Below are positions 1-13,113 of a stretch of DNA of 15,910 bases, one piece after another; the stretch's first letter is position 1, and each line of letters opens with the position of its first letter. Under the pieces are notes generated by a model. It was not told where the DNA came from, made no database searches, and saw nothing but the letters and a program-made list of their open reading frames with translations. The translations under genes were made by a program, and so were the position numbers. Where the stretch lies: IMG/VR virus record IMGVR_UViG_3300006056_000031, positions 1 through 15,910 of that record. The stretch is one strand, 5' to 3'. Source of the DNA: a virus. Taxonomy: Duplodnaviria > Heunggongvirae > Uroviricota > Caudoviricetes.

Positions 1-1
1 C

Positions 2-103
2 TGCTAACGATTTGCAGCTTGGCGTTCGGTTTTTGGCTTACCGAAATGTTCAAGTTTACCACAATACTAATAGCCAAAAACTGACGCTAAGGTGCTGTTA
101 TAG
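2..103. repeat. attC-like hairpin site 1
   Basis: TGCTAAC (2-8), 5-nt spacer GATTT, left arm GCAGCTTGGCGTTCGGTTTTTGGCT (14-38) complementary to right arm AGCCAAAAACTGACGCTAAGGTGC (72-95) with one extra T in the left arm, then T-GTTATAG (97-103). Confidence 0.85.
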
Positions 104-148
104 CCAGTGCTTTTAATGGAATTATTAACAATTAAACAAATATAAAAA

Positions 149-547
149 ATGGAAAAGATTTTAAGAATTGAAGAAACAACCTTCAAAAAAACAAAAGACG
201 ATTGGCAATCATTTGAAGGTTTCCAAATCATAACGGATTTACAAACTATCCAAATTGGAATTAGCAACGGTCAATCTTGTTGTGAAAATTTTGGATGTAT
301 AATCACCAACGATGAAACCAAAGAATTTATTGGTGCGGAATTAAAGTCATTGGCAATTGTTGATAATGCCTTGAATAATAAAAAGATTGAAGAATTGGAA
401 TATTTGGATAGCGGTGGGGCAATGTTTGTAAATCTTGAAACAAGCGAGGGTTTACTTCAATTCGTTGCCTATAATGCACATAATGGATATTACGGACACG
501 AAGCAGTTTTAGTCAGCAAGCAACTTAATCATGAAGAGGGTCTTTAG
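149..547 (+). CDS. Cassette ORF, hypothetical protein (132 aa, QSCCE motif)
   Basis: ORF with A-rich leader; bounded by inverted repeats 97-110 and 547-560. Confidence 0.85.
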   Translation: MEKILRIEETTFKKTKDDWQSFEGFQIITDLQTIQIGISNGQSCCENFGCIITNDETKEFIGAELKSLAIVDNALNNKKIEELEYLDSGGAMFVNLETSEGLLQFVAYNAHNGYYGHEAVLVSKQLNHEEGL

Positions 548-553
548 CATTGG

Positions 554-685
554 CTATAACGTTATTCAGCTTGTAGTCAGGCGTGGAATAGAAGCGTAAA
601 TTTTCGGATTAGAAACAAGTATTAAAAAACACGCAAGCGATTGGATAAAGCCTAAAGCCACGCTTGCTACAAACTGATGTTAGGC
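554..685. repeat. attC-like hairpin site 2 (132 bp)
   Basis: CTATAAC (554-560), spacer GTTAT, arm TCAGCTTGTAGTCAGGCGTGG (566-586) pairs with CCACGCTTGCTACAAACTGA (658-677) with one extra T, then T-GTTAGGC (679-685). Confidence 0.85.
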
Positions 686-686
686 G

Positions 687-908
687 ATGTATTTTATTAT
701 GAGTATTTTAGAAGCAGGAACAGAAATTAAAGAAAAACCAACAGTAGGTCAAGAATTTATGGAATGGGCTGAACAGTATTGGTTATTAGACAAATTAGTT
801 AAAATTGAAAAACCTGACGAGTTTGCAGGAGAAAAATGTGATTATGATTATATGCGTAATATTTTCATTGAAAAGATAAACGGAATTATTAAAGACAGGT
901 TGGGTTAA
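687..908 (+). CDS. Cassette ORF, hypothetical protein (start 687 or 699)
   Basis: 73 aa ORF bounded by inverted repeats 679-693 and 907-921; no recognisable domain. Confidence 0.75.
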   Translation: MYFIMSILEAGTEIKEKPTVGQEFMEWAEQYWLLDKLVKIEKPDEFAGEKCDYDYMRNIFIEKINGIIKDRLG

Positions 909-914
909 TATATC

Positions 915-1046
915 GCCTAACGATTCTCGGCTTTGTTTAGTGCGGGATTATGAAAACGAAATTATCAACTTAAAAATAAATTACAATGGAAAAAGAAAAT
1001 TTGAATGAAGCAGAAAAACCCGCATTGAACAAAACCGATGTTAGCA
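915..1046. repeat. attC-like hairpin site 3 (132 bp)
   Basis: GCCTAAC (915-921), spacer GATTC, arm TCGGCTTTGTTTAGTGCGGG (927-946) pairs with CCCGCATTGAACAAAACCGA (1019-1038), then T-GTTAGCA (1040-1046). Confidence 0.85.
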
Positions 1047-1177
1047 GTAGTGCCAAACGCAGAAATGAAATAACAAAGATACTATATCGAAATTCAACTG
1101 ATGATTCAGAGTGTATGAGAATTAGATTTGAGGACATTCAAAATATAATTGACTTGCTGAATGATTTATACGACTAA
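986..1177 (+). CDS. Cassette ORF, hypothetical protein starting inside hairpin site 3
   Basis: ATG 986 lies in the hairpin loop after an A-rich leader; the right arm and core encode PALNKTDVSSSA; stop abuts inverted repeat 1178-1192. Confidence 0.7.
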   Translation: MEKENLNEAEKPALNKTDVSSSAKRRNEITKILYRNSTDDSECMRIRFEDIQNIIDLLNDLYD

Positions 1178-1185
1178 GGCATTAC

Positions 1186-1317
1186 TGCTAACGGACTGCG
1201 TGTATAAGAAGTGGCGTAGAACTTACCAAAACATTACAAAAATTAACGAATTATAAATTAATAAATAACCAATCCAAAAATGCCGATAGTAGCCATTTTT
1301 TATACCCGCTGTTATCT
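1186..1317. repeat. attC-like hairpin site 4 (132 bp)
   Basis: TGCTAAC (1186-1192), spacer GGACT, arm GCGTGTATAAGAAGTGGC (1198-1215) pairs with GCCATTTTTTATACCCGC (1292-1309), then T-GTTATCT (1311-1317). Confidence 0.85.
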
Positions 1318-1346
1318 TTCAGTTGCGGGTTTTAAAACAAAACAAT

Positions 1347-1535
1347 ATGACAGTAAAAAATCTAATTAAGGAACTTCTTGATTATAATATGGATGCAGAA
1401 GTTCAAGTAATTGCACATTGCCAAAAGTATGATTATAGCATAACTATTGGAGGTTCAGAAGGAGTTGAAAAGAACAACACTAAAGAAGTTTCTTTTTATG
1501 TTGATGAATTGTGTAATAATGAAAATATAAATTAA
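1347..1535 (+). CDS. Cassette ORF, hypothetical protein (MTVKNLIKELLDY...)
   Basis: ATG 1347 after an A-rich leader is preferred over the TTG at 1323, which lies inside the inverted repeat. Confidence 0.75.
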   Translation: MTVKNLIKELLDYNMDAEVQVIAHCQKYDYSITIGGSEGVEKNNTKEVSFYVDELCNNENIN

Positions 1536-1536
1536 A

Positions 1537-1713
1537 ATGAAAGTTAATAAATTGGAAATTGGTAAAAACTATTACCATGGTAATTGCAAAAAGAAATTTA
1601 AGTGTGTAGAATTAAATACAAACATTGATGAAAACCAATCTGATTTTGTTGATTATAAAAAAACATTACACAGGTTTTACAATGACGATATGTACTTAAA
1701 TAAGCAAATGTAG
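1537..1713 (+). CDS. Second ORF of the last cassette, hypothetical protein (58 aa; absent from ORF track)
   Basis: Manual translation MKVNKLEIGKNYYHGNCKKKFKCVELNTNIDENQSDFVDYKKTLHRFYNDDMYLNKQM*; starts 1 nt after the previous stop, and its TAG overlaps inverted repeat 1713-1727. Confidence 0.7.
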   Translation: MKVNKLEIGKNYYHGNCKKKFKCVELNTNIDENQSDFVDYKKTLHRFYNDDMYLNKQM

Positions 1714-1720
1714 CAATTGA

Positions 1721-1778
1721 AGATAACTATTATATATACGCAACTTTTTATAAAACATCAATTATCAATAAGTTATAT
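1721..1778. other. Integrase-proximal att-like site without hairpin (candidate attI equivalent)
   Basis: AGATAAC (1721-1727) ... GTTATAT (1772-1778), only 58 bp, no long internal stem, ends 1 nt before the integrase ATG at 1780. Confidence 0.55.
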
Positions 1779-1779
1779 T

Positions 1780-2583
1780 ATGAAAAATCAAAAAATTATA
1801 AAGATTTGCGAAGGAAAGTTTATATATCTAAACTACTCGTCTAGAACAAGAGACAACTACTTATCCCATATAAAGCATTTTTTAGAAAGTCTAGGTGATA
1901 AACAAATTATACATTGTAATTCTTCTGATTTTCAATCTTACTTGGAAACTTATAACTTCACTTCAGTATCACAACAAAATCAAGTAATCAATGCTATTAA
2001 GTTTTTATATAGAGAAGTATTATGTAAAAAATACGACAAAGTCTCATTCAAAAGACCCAAAGCAGAAAAGAAACTACCTAGAGTTATTGATGGTGATTTT
2101 ATCAAACAGCAGCTTTCAAAGATAAAAAACCTAAAACACAAAACAATACTAACCTTAACATACTCAGTAGGATTGAGGGTGTCGGAAGTTGTTAATTTAA
2201 AAATTGAGGATATTGATTCTAAAAGGATGTTGATTCATATTAAAAACGCAAAAGGGAGAAAGGACAGAATTGTACCTCTTTCCCAAAACGTCCTAGAAAT
2301 ACTCAGGGTGTATTACCAACAATATAAACCAAATCAATTTTTATTCAATGGTCAAAATTCAATACAGTATTCAATAGGTAGTTGTCAAAAAATCTACAAA
2401 AAATATATAGATTCTAATTCATCAATACACACTCTAAGACATTCTTCCTTTACTAATCTACTTGAATCGGGTACAGATTTAAGGATAATACAAAAAATAG
2501 CAGGGCATTCCTCCTCAAAGACTACCGAAATCTACACACACGTTTCTAACAATCTACTTAGTAAGATTAAACTACCAATATAA
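1780..2583 (+). CDS. Tyrosine recombinase/integrase (integron-integrase/Xer-like, no IntI insertion)
   Basis: Catalytic set GLR, KGRKDR, HTLRH, AGH, TEIYTHV intact; N-terminal SAM-like helical domain (QNQVINAIKFLY). ATG 1780 preferred to TTG 1717. Confidence 0.95.
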   Translation: MKNQKIIKICEGKFIYLNYSSRTRDNYLSHIKHFLESLGDKQIIHCNSSDFQSYLETYNFTSVSQQNQVINAIKFLYREVLCKKYDKVSFKRPKAEKKLPRVIDGDFIKQQLSKIKNLKHKTILTLTYSVGLRVSEVVNLKIEDIDSKRMLIHIKNAKGRKDRIVPLSQNVLEILRVYYQQYKPNQFLFNGQNSIQYSIGSCQKIYKKYIDSNSSIHTLRHSSFTNLLESGTDLRIIQKIAGHSSSKTTEIYTHVSNNLLSKIKLPI

Positions 2584-4025
2584 TGACCACAAAGAAAAAG
2601 AAAAAACCAATAGTTGATGTAGATGTTCTTAATTCTGACCAAAAGGAAGCTTTTGAGGAATTAAGGGACTTTATATGCGACAGGGATGATGAGAATGTTT
2701 ATGTCCTCAAAGGATGGGCAGGTACAGGTAAGACCTTCTGTATAAGTATTCTTGTTAGATACATTCTGGAGGTGGTTCATCCCAAGAGTGCTTGGTATAA
2801 AATTGCTGTGACCGGACCAACTAATAAATCGGTTCGTGTTATAAAAAAAACTAGCAATCTAAGAAATCCAAGAGTTACTTTTCAAACCATACATAAACTT
2901 CTTGGTCTAACTGAGAAGATAACCAATGACGGACAACAAGTTTTTGTGAATCAGGAAAAAAACTTCAAACCACAGATCAACTCAATTAAGCTTCTAATTA
3001 TAGATGAGGTTTCCATGCTTAATGATGATCTTTTTCACGAGATCCTAAAATATAGAGACAAGCTAAAGATTATATGTATGGGAGATCCTGCACAGATACC
3101 CCCAGTTGGTAAACCTGATTGCATTCCATTTAGAGACGAGTTAGCAGATTCTTACGGGATAAAAACACTGCAACTCAAAAAGATAATGAGACAGAAGGAA
3201 GGTAATGCCATCATAGATGCATCTGTACTTATCCGGGAAGATCTTTGGTCGGAAAGAAATCCGGTTAATCCTGTCACCTCCTTAAATTCACTTGGTGAGG
3301 GTGTTGAATTTCTAAACCTTAATGATGGTGAAACAAGGAAGGGATTTGGTGATATACTTGCCAAATATTTTAAATCCGAAGAATTCAAAGGTGATTCAGA
3401 ATACTGTAAGATTATAGCATGGAGAAACAAGACCGTTTCCAGTATGAATAACATTGTTAGAAGGATCATATTTGGCGAGGATGAATGTAGAACCAAGATA
3501 CTTGTTGGTGAAAAACTAATTGCCAATTCCCCTGTTATAATACAGGGAAATCTTGTATTATTTAATACGAACGATGAGTTCTCAGTTGAGTCTACCAAAA
3601 TAAAGGAGATGAATATGGTTCTAAAAACATTCTTGCCACCTATAGAGGTGAAACTCAAGTTCTATGATGCGGTAGTTACGTATCTTGACGATGAGGACGA
3701 AATTGAAAAAACCTCCATAGAAATACTGCACGAGGATAGCGAAGCTGAATTTTCCAAAATAGCAAATCTTCTTAAGCTGAAGGCCATAGAAAAGAAGGGC
3801 AGGGACAAAAGCTGGATTGACTATTATGATTTTCTAAGAAACTTTGCTGATGTAAATTTTGGGTATTGCATCACCGCGCATAAATCGCAGGGGAGTACTT
3901 ATAACACATCTTTTGTGCTGGAGGATGATATAGATCAGAACTATAATGTGGTTGAGAGAAACCGAATCAAATACACTGCTTATACAAGATCGAGCAAAAA
4001 AGTCTACGTTTTGAAAAGATTTTAA
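2583..4025 (+). CDS. SF1B DNA helicase, T4 Dda/RecD2-like
   Basis: Walker A GWAGTGKT, Walker B LIIDEVSM, GDPAQIPPV, IMRQ, ITAHKSQGST, YTAYTR motifs. Confidence 0.9.
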   Translation: MTTKKKKKPIVDVDVLNSDQKEAFEELRDFICDRDDENVYVLKGWAGTGKTFCISILVRYILEVVHPKSAWYKIAVTGPTNKSVRVIKKTSNLRNPRVTFQTIHKLLGLTEKITNDGQQVFVNQEKNFKPQINSIKLLIIDEVSMLNDDLFHEILKYRDKLKIICMGDPAQIPPVGKPDCIPFRDELADSYGIKTLQLKKIMRQKEGNAIIDASVLIREDLWSERNPVNPVTSLNSLGEGVEFLNLNDGETRKGFGDILAKYFKSEEFKGDSEYCKIIAWRNKTVSSMNNIVRRIIFGEDECRTKILVGEKLIANSPVIIQGNLVLFNTNDEFSVESTKIKEMNMVLKTFLPPIEVKLKFYDAVVTYLDDEDEIEKTSIEILHEDSEAEFSKIANLLKLKAIEKKGRDKSWIDYYDFLRNFADVNFGYCITAHKSQGSTYNTSFVLEDDIDQNYNVVERNRIKYTAYTRSSKKVYVLKRF

Positions 4026-4078
4026 TTTGGTGAATAGTGAGAATGTTACAGCAATTCAACGGTAGCGGGAATATGCTA

Positions 4079-5011
4079 TTATCTCTTTTGGTTTTGAGCC
4101 ACTAATTGTTGTAGCTTTTTTATATTTTGAGATTCCTGAGAATATTGATTTTGATATTGTTTTGTTTGGAATTCTCTTGGTACGATATTACCAGGTCTCC
4201 ATCCTTTATCCCAAGATTGATTTAATAACTTGTTATCTTCCTTGGTTCCATTGCTACCAAAAGAAATTTTTACTAAATCCCAATCATACCCTTCAGATTC
4301 CGATTTAGTTTTTGGTGTATCTTTTTGTGCATGGTCATATCCCTTAGAATATCCAACACCGGCAGCTCCATATGCTGCGATTGGTTTAGCTACGTTTTTA
4401 AATGATTTTGCTACACCTTGTTTTTTTAAAGTTCCCTTAGCCGCTTTAGTCCCAGATTTAATAGTTGCTGATTCTCCAATTTTTTTCATTTCCGACTGTA
4501 TCAATTTTCTATGCTGTGTAATTTTGCTCACAACTTCCAATTCAGCGGATTGTAATTTTTTACCGAGTGATATTTTTTTTCCAATTTCCCCCAGAGCTTT
4601 TTGTCCCCATTTGGATAGTCCCACTTTACTTGCTAATCCATCAATAGCTGGAATCAAAGAAAAGAGTGCAATCAATCCTGCTGTTTTTTTATCCCCCTCA
4701 TTATAGTATAATTTGGCATCATATAATGCAATACTAGTGGAAAGTAAAGGCCCGACGAAAGGAATAAAAGCGGTTCCAATTTCTAGAATTGTTAAAATTT
4801 TATGTTTATCCTTTGGATTATAGAACCCATTAACCGATACTCCCGCTGGTTCATTTTTAATTCCACCCTCTTCCTCATAATCATTACTTCTTTTCTCTTC
4901 ATCTTTAGTGCGTTTTCTGTGTGGATATAATTTATCATCTTCAGGGTCAAATTCAGGGTCGGATTTTTCAAGTAAACCCTCATATTGTGTTAATGTCATT
5001 ACATGTTTCAT
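4079..5011 (-). CDS. Hypothetical protein with hydrophobic hairpin; putative virion/ejected protein
   Basis: Long ORF, ATG 5011 (MKHVMTLTQYEGLLE) preferred to TTG 5020; apolar segment ILEIGTAFIPFVGPLLSTSIALYDA...AGLIALFSLIP. Confidence 0.7.
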   Translation of the reverse strand: MKHVMTLTQYEGLLEKSDPEFDPEDDKLYPHRKRTKDEEKRSNDYEEEGGIKNEPAGVSVNGFYNPKDKHKILTILEIGTAFIPFVGPLLSTSIALYDAKLYYNEGDKKTAGLIALFSLIPAIDGLASKVGLSKWGQKALGEIGKKISLGKKLQSAELEVVSKITQHRKLIQSEMKKIGESATIKSGTKAAKGTLKKQGVAKSFKNVAKPIAAYGAAGVGYSKGYDHAQKDTPKTKSESEGYDWDLVKISFGSNGTKEDNKLLNQSWDKGWRPGNIVPREFQTKQYQNQYSQESQNIKKLQQLVAQNQKR

Positions 5012-5020
5012 AATATGCAA

Positions 5021-5974
5021 TTATTTTGTGGATGACCAAAAATTCTTCCCATTCGCATACATACTATTACCATCTGTAGGAAATATGGAATTTAGATTAT
5101 CTTCAACTGATTTTGAAGGGATCGGAAAAGCTGTGGTTTTACCTCTTTCATTCATATATTTCTTAATTATTTCATTTGGCCTATTAAAACCCCCCCAATA
5201 GTTGTTTGTTACCGCGTCAACCACATCCCTGTCTGTTTTTACTATTTCCCTGCTATTTGGATTATCTGGTAAAATCTCCTTCATTCTTTTATATAAGATT
5301 TTAAGATATTCCTTTGTTTCTGGTAACATTTTATTAAAGATGTCGTCTGTTATTACACTATGCCTTTTACCCTTAGACTCGTAAAATTTTTGGTCAAGCC
5401 AACCCGCAAGTTTAAAACTTTCATCCCCCCCAGCCATTTTAAATGAACCCGTGCCAATCGCTCCCGCAGTGGATGCTACCGGTTTAGTGGATGTTTTATT
5501 TGCTGTTTTTGTGGCTATTTTACCACCACCATTTTCAAGCCTAGTTATTATACCATCCAACAACTTCTCAATATTTCCTCTAAAATTTGAACCATTATGG
5601 AATTTTTCAGGTAGTAAATTTAGGTATTCATCCATATTAGATTTGGTAATCTTACCAGCTAATGCTAAATCCAAAATTGACTTTATTGTTGATGTTGGTA
5701 TCTCCACACCAATTGAGGATCTTAGATATTGTTGTCCTGATTTGGTTATAAGAACTTTCTCGGTTGCTGATGTAATTTGAGCAAAAAAACTCTCTATATT
5801 GTCAATCTTATCCGCAAAGATTCTCTCTAATTTTTTAGCAGTTTGCGCACCAAATAGTTTCATCAGTGTGGATGCTAATTCTTCAAGCAACAAATTATAC
5901 TCAGATTCCCGAACTAGGTAGGATTCATTTACGTAATTTTGAAAATTATAAATTTTAGTATTCACCATGGACAT
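5021..5974 (-). CDS. Hypothetical protein, putative virion protein
   Basis: 317 aa ORF, preceded by GATATATA motif; no recognisable catalytic motif. Confidence 0.75.
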   Translation of the reverse strand: MSMVNTKIYNFQNYVNESYLVRESEYNLLLEELASTLMKLFGAQTAKKLERIFADKIDNIESFFAQITSATEKVLITKSGQQYLRSSIGVEIPTSTIKSILDLALAGKITKSNMDEYLNLLPEKFHNGSNFRGNIEKLLDGIITRLENGGGKIATKTANKTSTKPVASTAGAIGTGSFKMAGGDESFKLAGWLDQKFYESKGKRHSVITDDIFNKMLPETKEYLKILYKRMKEILPDNPNSREIVKTDRDVVDAVTNNYWGGFNRPNEIIKKYMNERGKTTAFPIPSKSVEDNLNSIFPTDGNSMYANGKNFWSSTK

Positions 5975-5985
5975 TTTTATTTTAT

Positions 5986-5993
5986 TATATATC
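5986..5993 (-). promoter_or_regulatory. GATATATA motif, candidate late promoter
   Basis: 11 nt upstream of ATG 5974; same octamer precedes genes at 9886 and 14883. Confidence 0.4.
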
Positions 5994-6027
5994 CTCCAAA
6001 TTATTTTTATATCTCGAAAGAATTTAT

Positions 6028-6035
6028 TATATTTG
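6028..6035 (+). promoter_or_regulatory. Bacteroidota-type -7 promoter box TAnnTTTG
   Basis: TATATTTG in the divergent intergenic region, 18 nt upstream of ATG 6054; no clear -33 TTTG seen. Confidence 0.55.
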
Positions 6036-6053
6036 CAATATAAAAATCAAGAG

Positions 6054-6515
6054 ATGGATAAGGAATTACAAGAATCCGAAAATAGAGCATTGAATTACAT
6101 AAGATCAACTAAGGAATACTCTGATCTGAATTTTCAAGACAACAATAGTAAAATATGGGTTGCTCATAATTCTCTAATTTCAGCTGCCAAAATATACATC
6201 ATTGACAATTACAAATCCATTGATGACTACATGGATCTGGATCTTATATTAAGAAGCGGTGCAACCGGGAAGAGATTCTATTTTGGTCCAAAAAGAAACA
6301 GAAATGTTTCAAGATCAAAGGAGTTGACCAGAATATTAAAAGATCTAGATAACCAAACTATAGTTATAGAAAGCTTTGATGAAGCGATCTATGATTGGTC
6401 AGATGGGGATTTTTCGGTAGTATTCAACGGAGAATCATACAATTGGATAGATGATGATTCGGTTATAAGTATAGCGTCTTATATAGAAAAAAAGTTAGAA
6501 GAAAATGAGATATAA
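6054..6515 (+). CDS. Hypothetical protein
   Basis: ATG 6054 chosen because it follows the promoter box; track start 5967 overlaps the divergent gene. Confidence 0.8.
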   Translation: MDKELQESENRALNYIRSTKEYSDLNFQDNNSKIWVAHNSLISAAKIYIIDNYKSIDDYMDLDLILRSGATGKRFYFGPKRNRNVSRSKELTRILKDLDNQTIVIESFDEAIYDWSDGDFSVVFNGESYNWIDDDSVISIASYIEKKLEENEI

Positions 6516-7611
6516 TATTGAAGAAGTAAACAGCTACATAGCTAAGGGATTGGTTGATAAATGTCAACATAAAGAACTTCCCATTGCAATCTATAAATAT
6601 TCACGTAATTGCCAATTTGAATGGATCTGGGATGAGGTTACTATGAACATGAGGGGTACCGTTCTTGATGGGGAGGGAAATCTTATAGCACGGACTTTTC
6701 CAAAGTTCTTCAATATCGATGAGTCTAATATTCCAAACCTTCCGTTTGAGGTTTTTGAGAAACTTGATGGGTCATTAGGGATTTTATTTTTTTATGCCGG
6801 GGAATGGCATTTAGCAACTCAGGGATCTTTCTATTCTGATGTTGCTATTTATGGACAGGAGATACTAAAGAGAAATGAAACTTACAAGAGTGTTTTCTCC
6901 GAGAAGTTTACATTTCTTTTTGAAATTATATACCCGCAAAACAGGGTCGTTGTATCCTATGGCGATGATGAAAAATTGGTTTTATTAGCTGCTTTTAAGA
7001 CAGATTCCGGTCGGGAGGTACAGTATGATGAATTAAAAAGAGTTGCTGAAAGGACTGGATTCGAATGTGTCAAAAGATATGATGGAATAAAGGATCTTAA
7101 AAAGATAAAATCCATAATAAAACATAATCAGGAGGGATTCGTTATAAGATTCTCAGATGGTAGCAGGGTAAAAGTAAAAGGGGAGGAATATGTTAGACTT
7201 CATGGAGTTTTAACCGGATTCTCAAATTTGGATATCTGGAGATGTCTAAAAGAAGGCACCGATTACAGATCAATGATGGTTGATGTGCCTGATGAATATG
7301 ATGTCTGGGTTACAAATGTTGAGCAGGATCTTCTATCAAATTTTAATTTTATAGAAGCAACGATAAAGGCTGAATATAATCTATTAATCAAAAAGATCAA
7401 AAGTCAAACGCCAACTGAGGAGGAAAGATTAGATAGAAATTCTCCAGTTCTTAAAGCCTATAACAAGGAGTTTTTTGAGTTGGTGGAGGAGCACAGATTA
7501 GCAGGATATCTATTGGATCATAATAGTCGTAAGGATTATTCTAAATCCATATGGAACCAAATAAGACCAGATTACCAGAAACCATTTTGGGAGGATTACC
7601 CAAAAAAATAA
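6505..7611 (+). CDS. RNA ligase, T4 Rnl1 (RnlA)-like
   Basis: Nucleotidyltransferase motif I EKLDGSLG, ATQGSF, FEII, EGFV, RVKVKGEEY. Confidence 0.9.
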   Translation: MRYNIEEVNSYIAKGLVDKCQHKELPIAIYKYSRNCQFEWIWDEVTMNMRGTVLDGEGNLIARTFPKFFNIDESNIPNLPFEVFEKLDGSLGILFFYAGEWHLATQGSFYSDVAIYGQEILKRNETYKSVFSEKFTFLFEIIYPQNRVVVSYGDDEKLVLLAAFKTDSGREVQYDELKRVAERTGFECVKRYDGIKDLKKIKSIIKHNQEGFVIRFSDGSRVKVKGEEYVRLHGVLTGFSNLDIWRCLKEGTDYRSMMVDVPDEYDVWVTNVEQDLLSNFNFIEATIKAEYNLLIKKIKSQTPTEEERLDRNSPVLKAYNKEFFELVEEHRLAGYLLDHNSRKDYSKSIWNQIRPDYQKPFWEDYPKK

Positions 7612-7618
7612 AAATATA

Positions 7619-7936
7619 ATGATAACACCAGTACCATTCTTTTTATTAAATCAAAAGAGAAATAGCAAGGTTTCAAAACCTAAAATAGAAACACTAAACA
7701 AATACACCAAACTCTCTCCTGACGAGTTTATCAAACTTGTTGCAAAAAGAACAGAGGTTTCTGGGTTGACCGAATCTATTGGTTATATCAACAATTGGTA
7801 TGGATTCGACGACTTGAAGCACGAGGAAAAAATTAATTTCGTTAGAAGAATTGAAACGCCTGAATATTACAGTCTGGTTTCAAGGGTTAAAAGAATCATT
7901 AAAAAAGTCAGAAATGGAAGAGGTAATAAGTCATAA
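7619..7936 (+). CDS. Hypothetical protein
   Basis: 105 aa ORF in a tightly packed operon. Confidence 0.7.
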   Translation: MITPVPFFLLNQKRNSKVSKPKIETLNKYTKLSPDEFIKLVAKRTEVSGLTESIGYINNWYGFDDLKHEEKINFVRRIETPEYYSLVSRVKRIIKKVRNGRGNKS

Positions 7937-8150
7937 GGTAAGGGGTAAGGTTGGAGAACTCCTATGTAAGAATGGATTCGAAGATAACGGGAGAGGATTT
8001 TTCAATGAATACTGTTTAGTTATTGTGGAGGAGGATCATTATTATGTGGAGATGGACCAGGGACATATGTTTAGCCAGGATCTTAGTATCTATTGGCTGA
8101 TAGGGGTTCTTACTTATAACGGACTAATGGATAAAAATTATAAACAATAA
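7914..8150 (+). CDS. Hypothetical protein
   Basis: ATG 7914 (MEEVISHK) preferred to TTG 7851 to limit overlap. Confidence 0.7.
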   Translation: MEEVISHKVRGKVGELLCKNGFEDNGRGFFNEYCLVIVEEDHYYVEMDQGHMFSQDLSIYWLIGVLTYNGLMDKNYKQ

Positions 8151-12327: not shown

Positions 12328-13113
12328 ATGCCATATAAGAAAATATCGGGGATTTATATTATAACTAATACTATAAACGGTAAGGTTTATATTGGTAGTG
12401 CAAAATCTATCTTTAAAAGATTGCATCGTCATAGATACATGTTGGATAAAAATAGGCACACGAATAGACATATGCAATCATCATATAACAAGTATGGATC
12501 TTCTAGCTTTACTTTTGAAATAGTTGAGATAACAATTCTTGATAAAAAAATAATGGAGGATAGGGAGGAATTTTATATATTATCATTTAGATCAAACGAT
12601 AAAAAATTTGGTTATAATAAAAGATTAGATTGTAGAACAAACCTGGGAATTAATGCATCCGATGAATCAAGAGAAAAAATGAGGATTTCTCATATTGGAA
12701 TTAATCAAAGCAGTGAAGCAAAGAAAAAAATAGCAATTTCGCGATATAAGGAGATCTATAAGCTAGATTCTTTAGGAATTATACTTTGTAAATATGATTC
12801 TATAATTTCAGCTTCCTCTGAAAATGATATATGTAAACAGTCCATTTCTTCTGCTTGTATAGGAAAAATCCCACATGCTGGAGGATATTATTGGTCATTT
12901 GTTGATTGTTATGATGCATCAGATGAATTTGGGGAGATAAAAAGAACATATAAACAAAAAAAATTCATTTATAAAAATACGAAAACACTTGAAACGTATA
13001 GTAAATTGTGCGAAGTTGCAAAGATTCTTGGTAAGACCAGTTCCAATTTAACTAACGCATTTAATGGGAGAATTAAAAACAATACAAAATTTATAAGATA
13101 TGAAAGAGAATAA
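12328..13113 (+). CDS. Free-standing GIY-YIG homing endonuclease with NUMOD3/NUMOD1-like DNA-binding modules
   Basis: SGIYIITNTINGKVYIGSA, R..H, FTFEIVE, YN motifs; SDESREKMRISH and KEIYKLD...YWSF modules. Confidence 0.9.
   Translation: MPYKKISGIYIITNTINGKVYIGSAKSIFKRLHRHRYMLDKNRHTNRHMQSSYNKYGSSSFTFEIVEITILDKKIMEDREEFYILSFRSNDKKFGYNKRLDCRTNLGINASDESREKMRISHIGINQSSEAKKKIAISRYKEIYKLDSLGIILCKYDSIISASSENDICKQSISSACIGKIPHAGGYYWSFVDCYDASDEFGEIKRTYKQKKFIYKNTKTLETYSKLCEVAKILGKTSSNLTNAFNGRIKNNTKFIRYERE

Follow-up and report, generated by a model that had tools for sequence, protein, structure and literature searches.

Integrons are the textbook gene-capture device of bacteria, with a chemistry that is generally attributed to a special domain of the integrase IntI. 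A phage-borne array that resembles them lies at the left end of IMG/VR virus record IMGVR_UViG_3300006056_000031. The stretch analyzed here (the window) comprises the first 15,910 nucleotides (nt) of this 79,910-nt contig, and window base 1 is contig base 1. CheckV estimates the contig to be ~30% complete, which implies a very large phage. The window opens with four hairpin sites that alternate with small open reading frames (ORFs), followed by a junction without a hairpin and by a tyrosine recombinase gene. Genes farther downstream are typical of phages and encode a Dda-like helicase, a T4-type RNA ligase, a phosphoesterase, a GIY-YIG homing endonuclease, and a head maturation protease. We consider it probable that the array is an integron-like gene-cassette platform, and we propose that the adjacent recombinase excises and re-inserts its cassettes. 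The features of the locus are as follows, with predicted cassette limits.

1-4, + strand: 4-nt remnant of a preceding cassette, truncated by the contig start (the TAAC of S1 begins at base 5)
5-100, + strand: hairpin S1 (TAAC 5-8, GTTA 97-100), putative head of cassette 1 (5-556); seen by folding, scanner, and covariance model
149-547, + strand: cassette 1 ORF, 132 amino acids (aa), DUF7448 (Pfam PF24240, E 4e-11; phrog_10011, unknown function)
557-682, + strand: hairpin S2 (TAAC 557-560, GTTA 679-682), putative head of cassette 2 (557-917); seen by folding and scanner
687-908, + strand: cassette 2 ORF, 73 aa (69 aa if the ATG at 699 is used), no known family
918-1043, + strand: hairpin S3 (TAAC 918-921, GTTA 1040-1043), putative head of cassette 3 (918-1188); inverted repeat 927-949/1016-1038
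986-1177, + strand: cassette 3 ORF, 63 aa, with its start within the S3 loop
1189-1314, + strand: hairpin S4 (TAAC 1189-1192, GTTA 1311-1314), putative head of cassette 4 (1189-1723); inverted repeat 1195-1215/1292-1312
1347-1535 (62 aa) and 1537-1713 (58 aa), + strand: two ORFs, cargo of cassette 4, no known family
1717-1743, + strand: attI-like junction, TTGAAGATAA-CTATTAT-ATATACGCAA, with a putatively cassette-derived arm (TTGAAGATAA), a fixed arm (ATATACGCAA), and a predicted crossover in TAAC 1724-1727
1780-2583, + strand: tyrosine recombinase, 267 aa, Xer/IntI-like, without the IntI insertion (PF00589, 4e-33, and PF13495)

Four imperfect TAAC...GTTA hairpins, all on the + strand, lie within positions 1-1314 and alternate with small + strand ORFs, as the initial annotation of this sequence had described. 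The annotation also had the array continue to the left of the window; with the contig beginning at the same base, the assembly shows no more of a preceding unit than the 4 nt before S1. Each consists of a flank, YTAAC, a G, 4 nt, a 3-4-bp stem, a mismatch, a long stem, a large loop, the return arm, T-GTTA, and a second flank. A scanner for TAAC...GTTA with complementary arms found only these four sites in the whole 79,910-nt contig; its - strand gave none, nor did three shuffles. A covariance model whose training sites came almost entirely from elsewhere than this contig (S1 was included) re-found S1 (2-106, E 2.7e-6), S3 (912-1049, E 4e-6), and S4 (1183-1320, E 4.6e-7) in a contig-wide search. 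It found nothing beyond these three in the contig, and S2 fails the threshold of E 0.01. As DNA, S1 folds at -21.2 kcal/mol (z -3.5; scanner score 14.5) and S2 at -20.6 kcal/mol (z -2.3; scanner score 13). An Rfam search returned no match.

The arrangement is common among related phages. A relative of the recombinase is encoded by 227 IMG/VR contigs; 80 of these (61-88% identity, many of them 100-360 kb) were examined, giving 81 arrays or loci for comparison. Nearly all relatives with available upstream sequence carry arrays, with 1-13 sites of the same architecture. With the exception of L068 and L078, these arrays lie upstream of the recombinase gene and on its strand; a few sites, near-palindromic ones, are called on the - strand as well. 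Many related contigs break exactly at the array.

The hairpin sites conserve structure with little sequence. Across 324 unique sites, conservation is limited to the cores (A/C)TAAC-G and T-GTTA-(T/G), an ATT in the 5' flank, and a few stem positions. These cores agree with those of integron-type sites, which are imperfect hairpins with RYYYAAC/GTTRRRY-type cores and a crossover placed in the core. Their spacers are 5 nt on one side and 1-2 nt on the other. In a 71-site alignment, 18 of 25 stem pairs show compensatory changes, and no shuffle out of 500 reached the covariation score. In the same alignment 96.7% of cells are paired, against 34-55% with slid partners; the scanner selects complementary arms, which inflates this pairing figure and leaves the variety of pair types unaffected. 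Three to four positions are fixed G.T pairs with the G on the 5' arm. They give the + strand the better fold of the two strands in 91% of 303 sites (p = 2e-43). This folding bias likely marks one strand as the substrate, as in attC.

Small accessory genes preceded by stem-loops are also found in the hyperplastic regions of large phages. The PeSLs described there are nearly identical repeats, each a strong sigma-70-type promoter plus a terminator stem-loop, that flank small non-essential genes and recombine by homology; modular shuffling results from them, and mini-circles are formed (Arbiol et al., 2010, PMC2839356). If the present sites were regulatory stem-loops of this type, shuffling would be a by-product of homologous recombination between repeats, as in T4-type hyperplastic regions. 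The 5' position of the hairpin relative to each gene is the same here, and some hairpin families recur in many cassettes. However, positions 1-2700 contain 12 sigma-70-like promoters against 14.4 expected and no intrinsic terminators (0), and the Bacteroidota -7 motif is present at 20 of 324 sites compared with 17 in shuffles; on this basis a promoter or terminator role of the hairpins was rejected. Hairpins within an array differ and covary, so they offer no long identity for recombination, and joints have only TAAC(G), a 4-5-nt core, in common. Flank complementarity across the ORFs and a dedicated recombinase with a junction beside it are not features of PeSLs either. Altogether we regard this explanation as quite improbable.

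The limits of the mobile unit can be read from the flanks of the sites and from the ends of homology between arrays. The 10-nt flanks to the two sides of an ORF are complementary at 7.1/10 positions, compared with 3.5/10 for a site's own two flanks or for random pairs. In the window all four flank pairs are complementary across the cargo, with G.T at mismatches. The S2 5' flank (547-556) pairs at 9/10 positions with the S1 3' flank (101-110), and the S4 5' flank (1178-1192) is 93% complementary to 1040-1054. This complementarity would be the residue of a circle linearized at a core, and alone it does not say which core. Homology blocks between arrays place the boundary at the 5' core: of their left ends 20 of 31, and of their right ends 19 of 28, are no farther than 12 nt from a 5' TAAC, and only 1-2 are near a GTTA. 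Where an ORF is shared between arrays, it retains its upstream hairpin rather than the downstream one (four cases to none). ORF 986-1177 overlaps S3, in which it starts, so this hairpin and its downstream ORF form one unit. For these reasons the predicted cassette is a hairpin plus its downstream cargo, which gives 5-556, 557-917, 918-1188, and 1189-1723 as the putative cassettes of the window.

The classical unit, an ORF with the hairpin that follows it, was also considered, with an IntI gene beyond the left end of the contig. It was rejected since breakpoints lie at the 5' TAAC and not at GTTA; the retained upstream hairpin, the position of ORF 986-1177 in S3, and a conserved right end that is not a hairpin further exclude it. 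In integrons, cassette genes read away from intI and attI, where the promoter that drives them is located; those of the present array do not read away from the recombinase gene. All five window ORFs are on the + strand, and the longest ORF is on the recombinase strand, reading towards the recombinase, in 331 cassettes, compared with 19 on the other strand. When the layout is flipped, it presents a recombinase gene pointing away, the insertion site, and then cassettes cut at G/TT, which is the classical integron topology except for cargo orientation. The initial annotation had considered the recombinase to be placed unlike intI; relative to the sites its position is that of a classical integron, and it is the cassette genes that are inverted.

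Two further classes of site were seen in the relatives. In one, of 186-229 nt (L044:60-279, L006:123-351, L013:2403-2621, and others), the loop holds a whole small ORF, and the arms bracket the cargo. The loop ORF of L044 encodes a CxxC...CxxC peptide. The start of ORF 986-1177 within the S3 loop parallels this class. The other is a minimal 48-nt class (L004:4254, L005:5242, L008:1920, and ~55 more) with a nearly invariant loop, TCGTTTTAATG; no site of this class occurs in the window.

The right end of the array is a fixed site. A fifth att-like site had been noted previously beside the recombinase gene; it is real (1717-1743), but it is a junction and not a hairpin, and DNA folding gave no stable hairpin there. 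The left flank of the junction (1714-1723) can pair with the right flank of S4 and is followed by TAAC at 1724-1727, 53 nt upstream of the recombinase ATG. The sequence 3' of this TAAC in the window is TATTATATATACGCAA. In 77 of the 81 loci the array ends in TAAC followed directly by TATTATATATA (TAAC-TATtATATAT), ~45-60 nt before the recombinase start, as an attI-type site stands beside the integrase gene. Across loci the sequence is variable to the left of the TAAC and conserved to its right, and contigs of metagenome runs X1, X2, and X6 start or end at 1723-1727. Read as a duplex, the window junction may be two inverted TTGNNNATA arms around 7 bases, like an Xer core site. Its left arm would be contributed by the conserved 3' end of every cassette, and the conserved TAAC junction would be the insertion point.

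Tyrosine recombinases catalyze such exchanges, and the recombinase of the window has the parts required of one. It starts at ATG 1780 (the TTG at 1717 only opens the mechanical ORF) and consists of a SAM-like N-terminal domain and a domain with the complete catalytic set. R133, K158, H217, R220, H243, and Y252 are invariant among 29 relatives, and the gene is the sole PF00589 gene in the 79.9-kb contig. The XerA-type model is its best NCBIfam match, at 167.5 bits (cut-off 220). Scores are also below the cut-offs for the IntI models (TIGR02249, 156.5 bits, cut-off 265; NF011946, 103.8, cut-off 435) and for XerC (140.3 bits, cut-off 335) and XerD (139, cut-off 330), and the protein stays under every Xer equivalog cut-off (XerA, XerC, XerD, XerS). 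In the classical enzyme VchIntIA, the IntI insertion contacts extrahelical bases of the folded attC. This insertion is absent: residues 174-209 of the query (36 aa) correspond to residues 176-259 (84 aa) of VchIntIA (2a3v). IntI1 aligns end to end and is 50 residues longer (317 aa versus 267 aa). In an AlphaFold (AF2) model (pLDDT 84.9), residues 183-198 are coil with no extra helix. The best structural match of the model by Foldseek is IntI (VchIntIA, E 1.8e-14), followed by archaeal XerA, and the best sequence match in PDB is P. abyssi XerA. With its catalytic residues complete and its IntI scores below the cut-offs, the description as a non-IntI tyrosine recombinase in the initial annotation holds.

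Xer recombinases (XerA, XerC/D, XerH) share with this enzyme their size, their layout of a SAM-like N-terminal and a catalytic domain, and their catalytic residues, and Xer/dif-type sites resemble the junction in that it can be read as two ~10-bp inverted arms with a 7-bp center. Unlike Xer proteins, the present enzyme is a phage product whose gene adjoins a cassette array; it scores below the equivalog cut-offs, and in place of a second dif it would have hairpins as partner sites.

A Dda/RecD2-like SF1B helicase gene (2583-4025, + strand) overlaps the stop codon of the recombinase gene (TAATG 2581-2585). The integrase and helicase had previously been treated as a constant landmark, which was not borne out, and a conserved integrase-helicase module was rejected. 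By tblastn, only one of the 76 relatives with enough downstream sequence has a helicase homologue (L077, 68% identity), and there it lies upstream of the array (L077:1994-3415). Relative to the helicase, the array and recombinase module thus lies on one side in this phage and on the other in L077.

Related sites and recombinases are also found outside these phages. Sites of this kind occur in Bacteroidota chromosomes, next to a longer homologous recombinase with 42-50% identity. The cultured Bacteroidota strain Pelobium manganitolerans YS-25 (L154, G001:C2:139046-149365) has at least 14 covariance-model matches. Seven of these lie within 10 kb, on the opposite strand, just downstream of a longer recombinase with 45% identity to the phage enzyme. 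Here a chromosomal array is arranged differently, and the 3' end of the recombinase gene faces it. Many bacterial contigs break 100-200 nt past the longer recombinase gene. In Polaribacter phage P12002L (L163, NC_028924), two sites of the hairpin family were found on the - strand (32491-32695 and 38879-38936), one of which adjoins a DNA methyltransferase gene; this phage is without an annotated integrase. The 10 isolates of Polaribacter phage Freya (Freya_10, L082, positions 1-4147) show 0-4 kb of small-ORF differences directly upstream of an integrase with 36% identity to the window recombinase. The scanner found no TAAC...GTTA hairpins in positions 1-8000 of Freya_10, and this upstream variability may rest on a different site type.

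Clusters of attC-type sites with small cassettes, some of them encoding DNA methylases, have been reported in lytic phages as integron components without an integrase that are usable by bacterial IntI1 (Qi et al., 2023, PMC9892861). No phage recombinase, insertion site, or site family like the present one is described in that paper on phage CALINs. The array of the window could be similarly passive, moved by a classical IntI or by the longer Bacteroidota homologue of the host, while the phage recombinase does another job such as multimer resolution or integration. IntI1 does recombine attC sites of virulent phages, including P12002L (Qi et al., 2023, PMC9892861), in which two sites of the present hairpin family exist without an annotated integrase. 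Bacterial arrays beside homologous recombinases and the missing IntI insertion of the phage enzyme are also in keeping with a CALIN-like array. Against this, the array is coupled to its own recombinase and to the TAAC-TATTATATATA junction in 77 of 81 loci with near-constant polarity across a large clade, whereas the neighboring helicase is not conserved beside the recombinase (1 of 76). A junction whose left arm comes from the conserved 3' end of each cassette fits a dedicated site, and classical integrons are nearly absent from Bacteroidetes (IntegronFinder 2.0 paper). A passive array is the main rival to an active platform, and we consider it unlikely.

Cassette content and order differ widely among relatives. 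The 81 arrays contain 360 cassettes, of 316 types. In L017, L033, L034, and L056, cassettes of types 0, 1, and 16 stand beside different neighbors, and type 1 is distal in L017 but adjoins the insertion site in L033 and L034. The initial annotation had set a fixed gene order in relatives against the idea of shuffling; the opposite is seen, in the number of types, in shifted positions, and in swapped order. Swapped order is found for cassettes of the window itself. In run X2, from an independent wastewater study, one contig reads [other][917-1188][557-922][other], with cassettes 3 and 2 exchanged. The X2 phage has 97.6% identity over the recombinase region and a different cassette beside the junction. 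Contigs of X2 and X9 cover exactly 557-922 (cassette 2), and they cover 917-1188/1193 (cassette 3) with other neighbors. In the freshwater studies X6 and X9, cassettes of the window recur at >=99% identity beside different neighbors, with contig ends at TAAC cores and a separate depth for each cassette, and the recombinase of this phage is absent. Short-sided skip joints (sides of 20-26 letters) were excluded as repeat cross-matches.

Metagenome contigs can be chimeric, and the array stands at a contig end, where many related contigs also break. The array could then be an assembly artefact, or the hairpins could be fixed, non-mobile intergenic repeats. In the probable source run, a part of cassette 4 (contig 1309-1752) has about half the backbone depth (7.1 vs. 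15.4). This may reflect heterogeneity at the junction, but it is confounded by shared hairpins and is not relied on. In the same run cassettes 1-3 and S4 have depths of 15.3-15.9, compared with 15.4 for the backbone. The architecture is repeated across many samples, in 80 independent contigs, and the swapped joint of X2 has only 5 letters in common, which is too short for a 31-mer assembly error. An artefact of either kind is therefore very improbable.

Cassettes of these phages carry small genes, most of which have no recognizable family. The five cassette proteins of the window have no assignable function in Pfam, NCBIfam, or PHROG; the DUF7448 ORF of cassette 1 has 35% identity to a cassette ORF of L077. 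Most of 150 cassette proteins from relatives also lack a Pfam match. Among the matches are the Thoeris inhibitor Tad6, three DNA methylases, an Rv2179c-like exoribonuclease, and an RNA ligase. Probably the cargo is accessory and serves counter-defence in part, and judging from these matches such a role is plausible for part of the cassette pool. The anti-host cargo previously suggested for the array accordingly has some footing in the relatives, in Tad6 and the three methylases, and none in the five window proteins, which have no known function.

Two other features of the window lie outside the array. Positions 4079-5974 (- strand) contain two adjacent ORFs of 313 and 317 aa with no Pfam or PHROG match, a small island of inverted genes that separates the helicase from the RNA-ligase operon. 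A GIY-YIG homing endonuclease gene (12328-13113, + strand; phrog_314, E 7e-28) is located among structural and replication genes.

Integrons, especially sedentary chromosomal ones, are the closest known parallel. Like the system described here, they have small cassettes, imperfect hairpins with AAC/GTT cores, crossover in the core, flank complementarity that spans the cargo, and a non-hairpin insertion site beside a tyrosine recombinase gene pointing away from the array. One strand of their sites folds better, and their cassette diversity is very high. The differences are in the carrier, which is a phage, in the enzyme, which lacks the IntI insertion and scores below the IntI cut-offs, and in the cargo. 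Cassette genes are on the foldable strand and read towards the recombinase, and consequently each hairpin precedes its gene. The sites themselves also differ: attC sites have roughly symmetric spacers and extrahelical bases, whereas the present sites have unequal spacers (5 nt and 1-2 nt) and fixed G.T pairs.

The sequence comparisons establish the anatomy of the array, the covarying and conserved structure of its sites, their strand bias, the limits of the units, the conserved insertion site, and a natural turnover and re-ordering of cassettes. Each cassette is a structured site with one or two small same-strand genes, and cassettes are joined head to tail. Crossover is placed inside the 5' TAAC, probably between TAA and C, and the last cassette abuts the fixed non-hairpin insertion site beside the recombinase gene. 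We infer that the adjacent 267-aa recombinase is the catalyst, that it uses a single-strand mechanism with circular intermediates, and that the insertion site is preferred. It would excise cassettes as circles by site-by-site recombination, and it would re-insert, preferentially at the insertion site, excised cassettes or those of host arrays and co-infecting phages. As substrate it would use the folded + strand of the hairpin, comparable to the attC bottom strand for integron integrases. A phage-carried system for cassette capture and shuffling that is distinct from classical integrons had been proposed in the initial annotation, and every computational test run supports it.

Several observations weigh against an active phage platform. 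An enzyme without the IntI-specific insertion would need another solution for a folded-strand mechanism, and the longer Bacteroidota recombinase could act in trans. About one third of homology breakpoints lie away from any TAAC, and the evidence on insertion polarity comes from few events. Some hairpin families are common to many cassettes, so homologous recombination could contribute, and hairpin depth is very high and uneven. The metagenome runs were analyzed as assembled contigs, and metagenomic arrays can be mis-joined through shared cassettes.

We lean, by a modest measure, towards a broader interpretation as well. A minimal Xer-type recombinase without the attC-reading domain would run a strand-specific hairpin-cassette platform common to large Bacteroidota phages and host chromosomes. 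It would serve a market of small genes that includes counter-defence genes, with cargo orientation opposite to the classical one, and it would be either an independent invention or an unrecognized sister lineage of the integron. No published description of the system was found in a search that left most subscription journals outside its reach, and which brought up only classical integrons, PeSLs, and, as the nearest match, the phage CALINs (Qi et al., 2023). The system is widespread and apparently undescribed.

The layout of the array suggests how these phages trade accessory genes. If the proposed platform with its simpler enzyme is correct, the integron principle would have a greater age, or evolve more easily, than has been assumed, and the compact recombinase and its site would form a pair that is a candidate tool. 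It would also give large phages a concrete mechanism behind their hyperplastic small-gene regions, and a route by which phages and their hosts exchange small genes.

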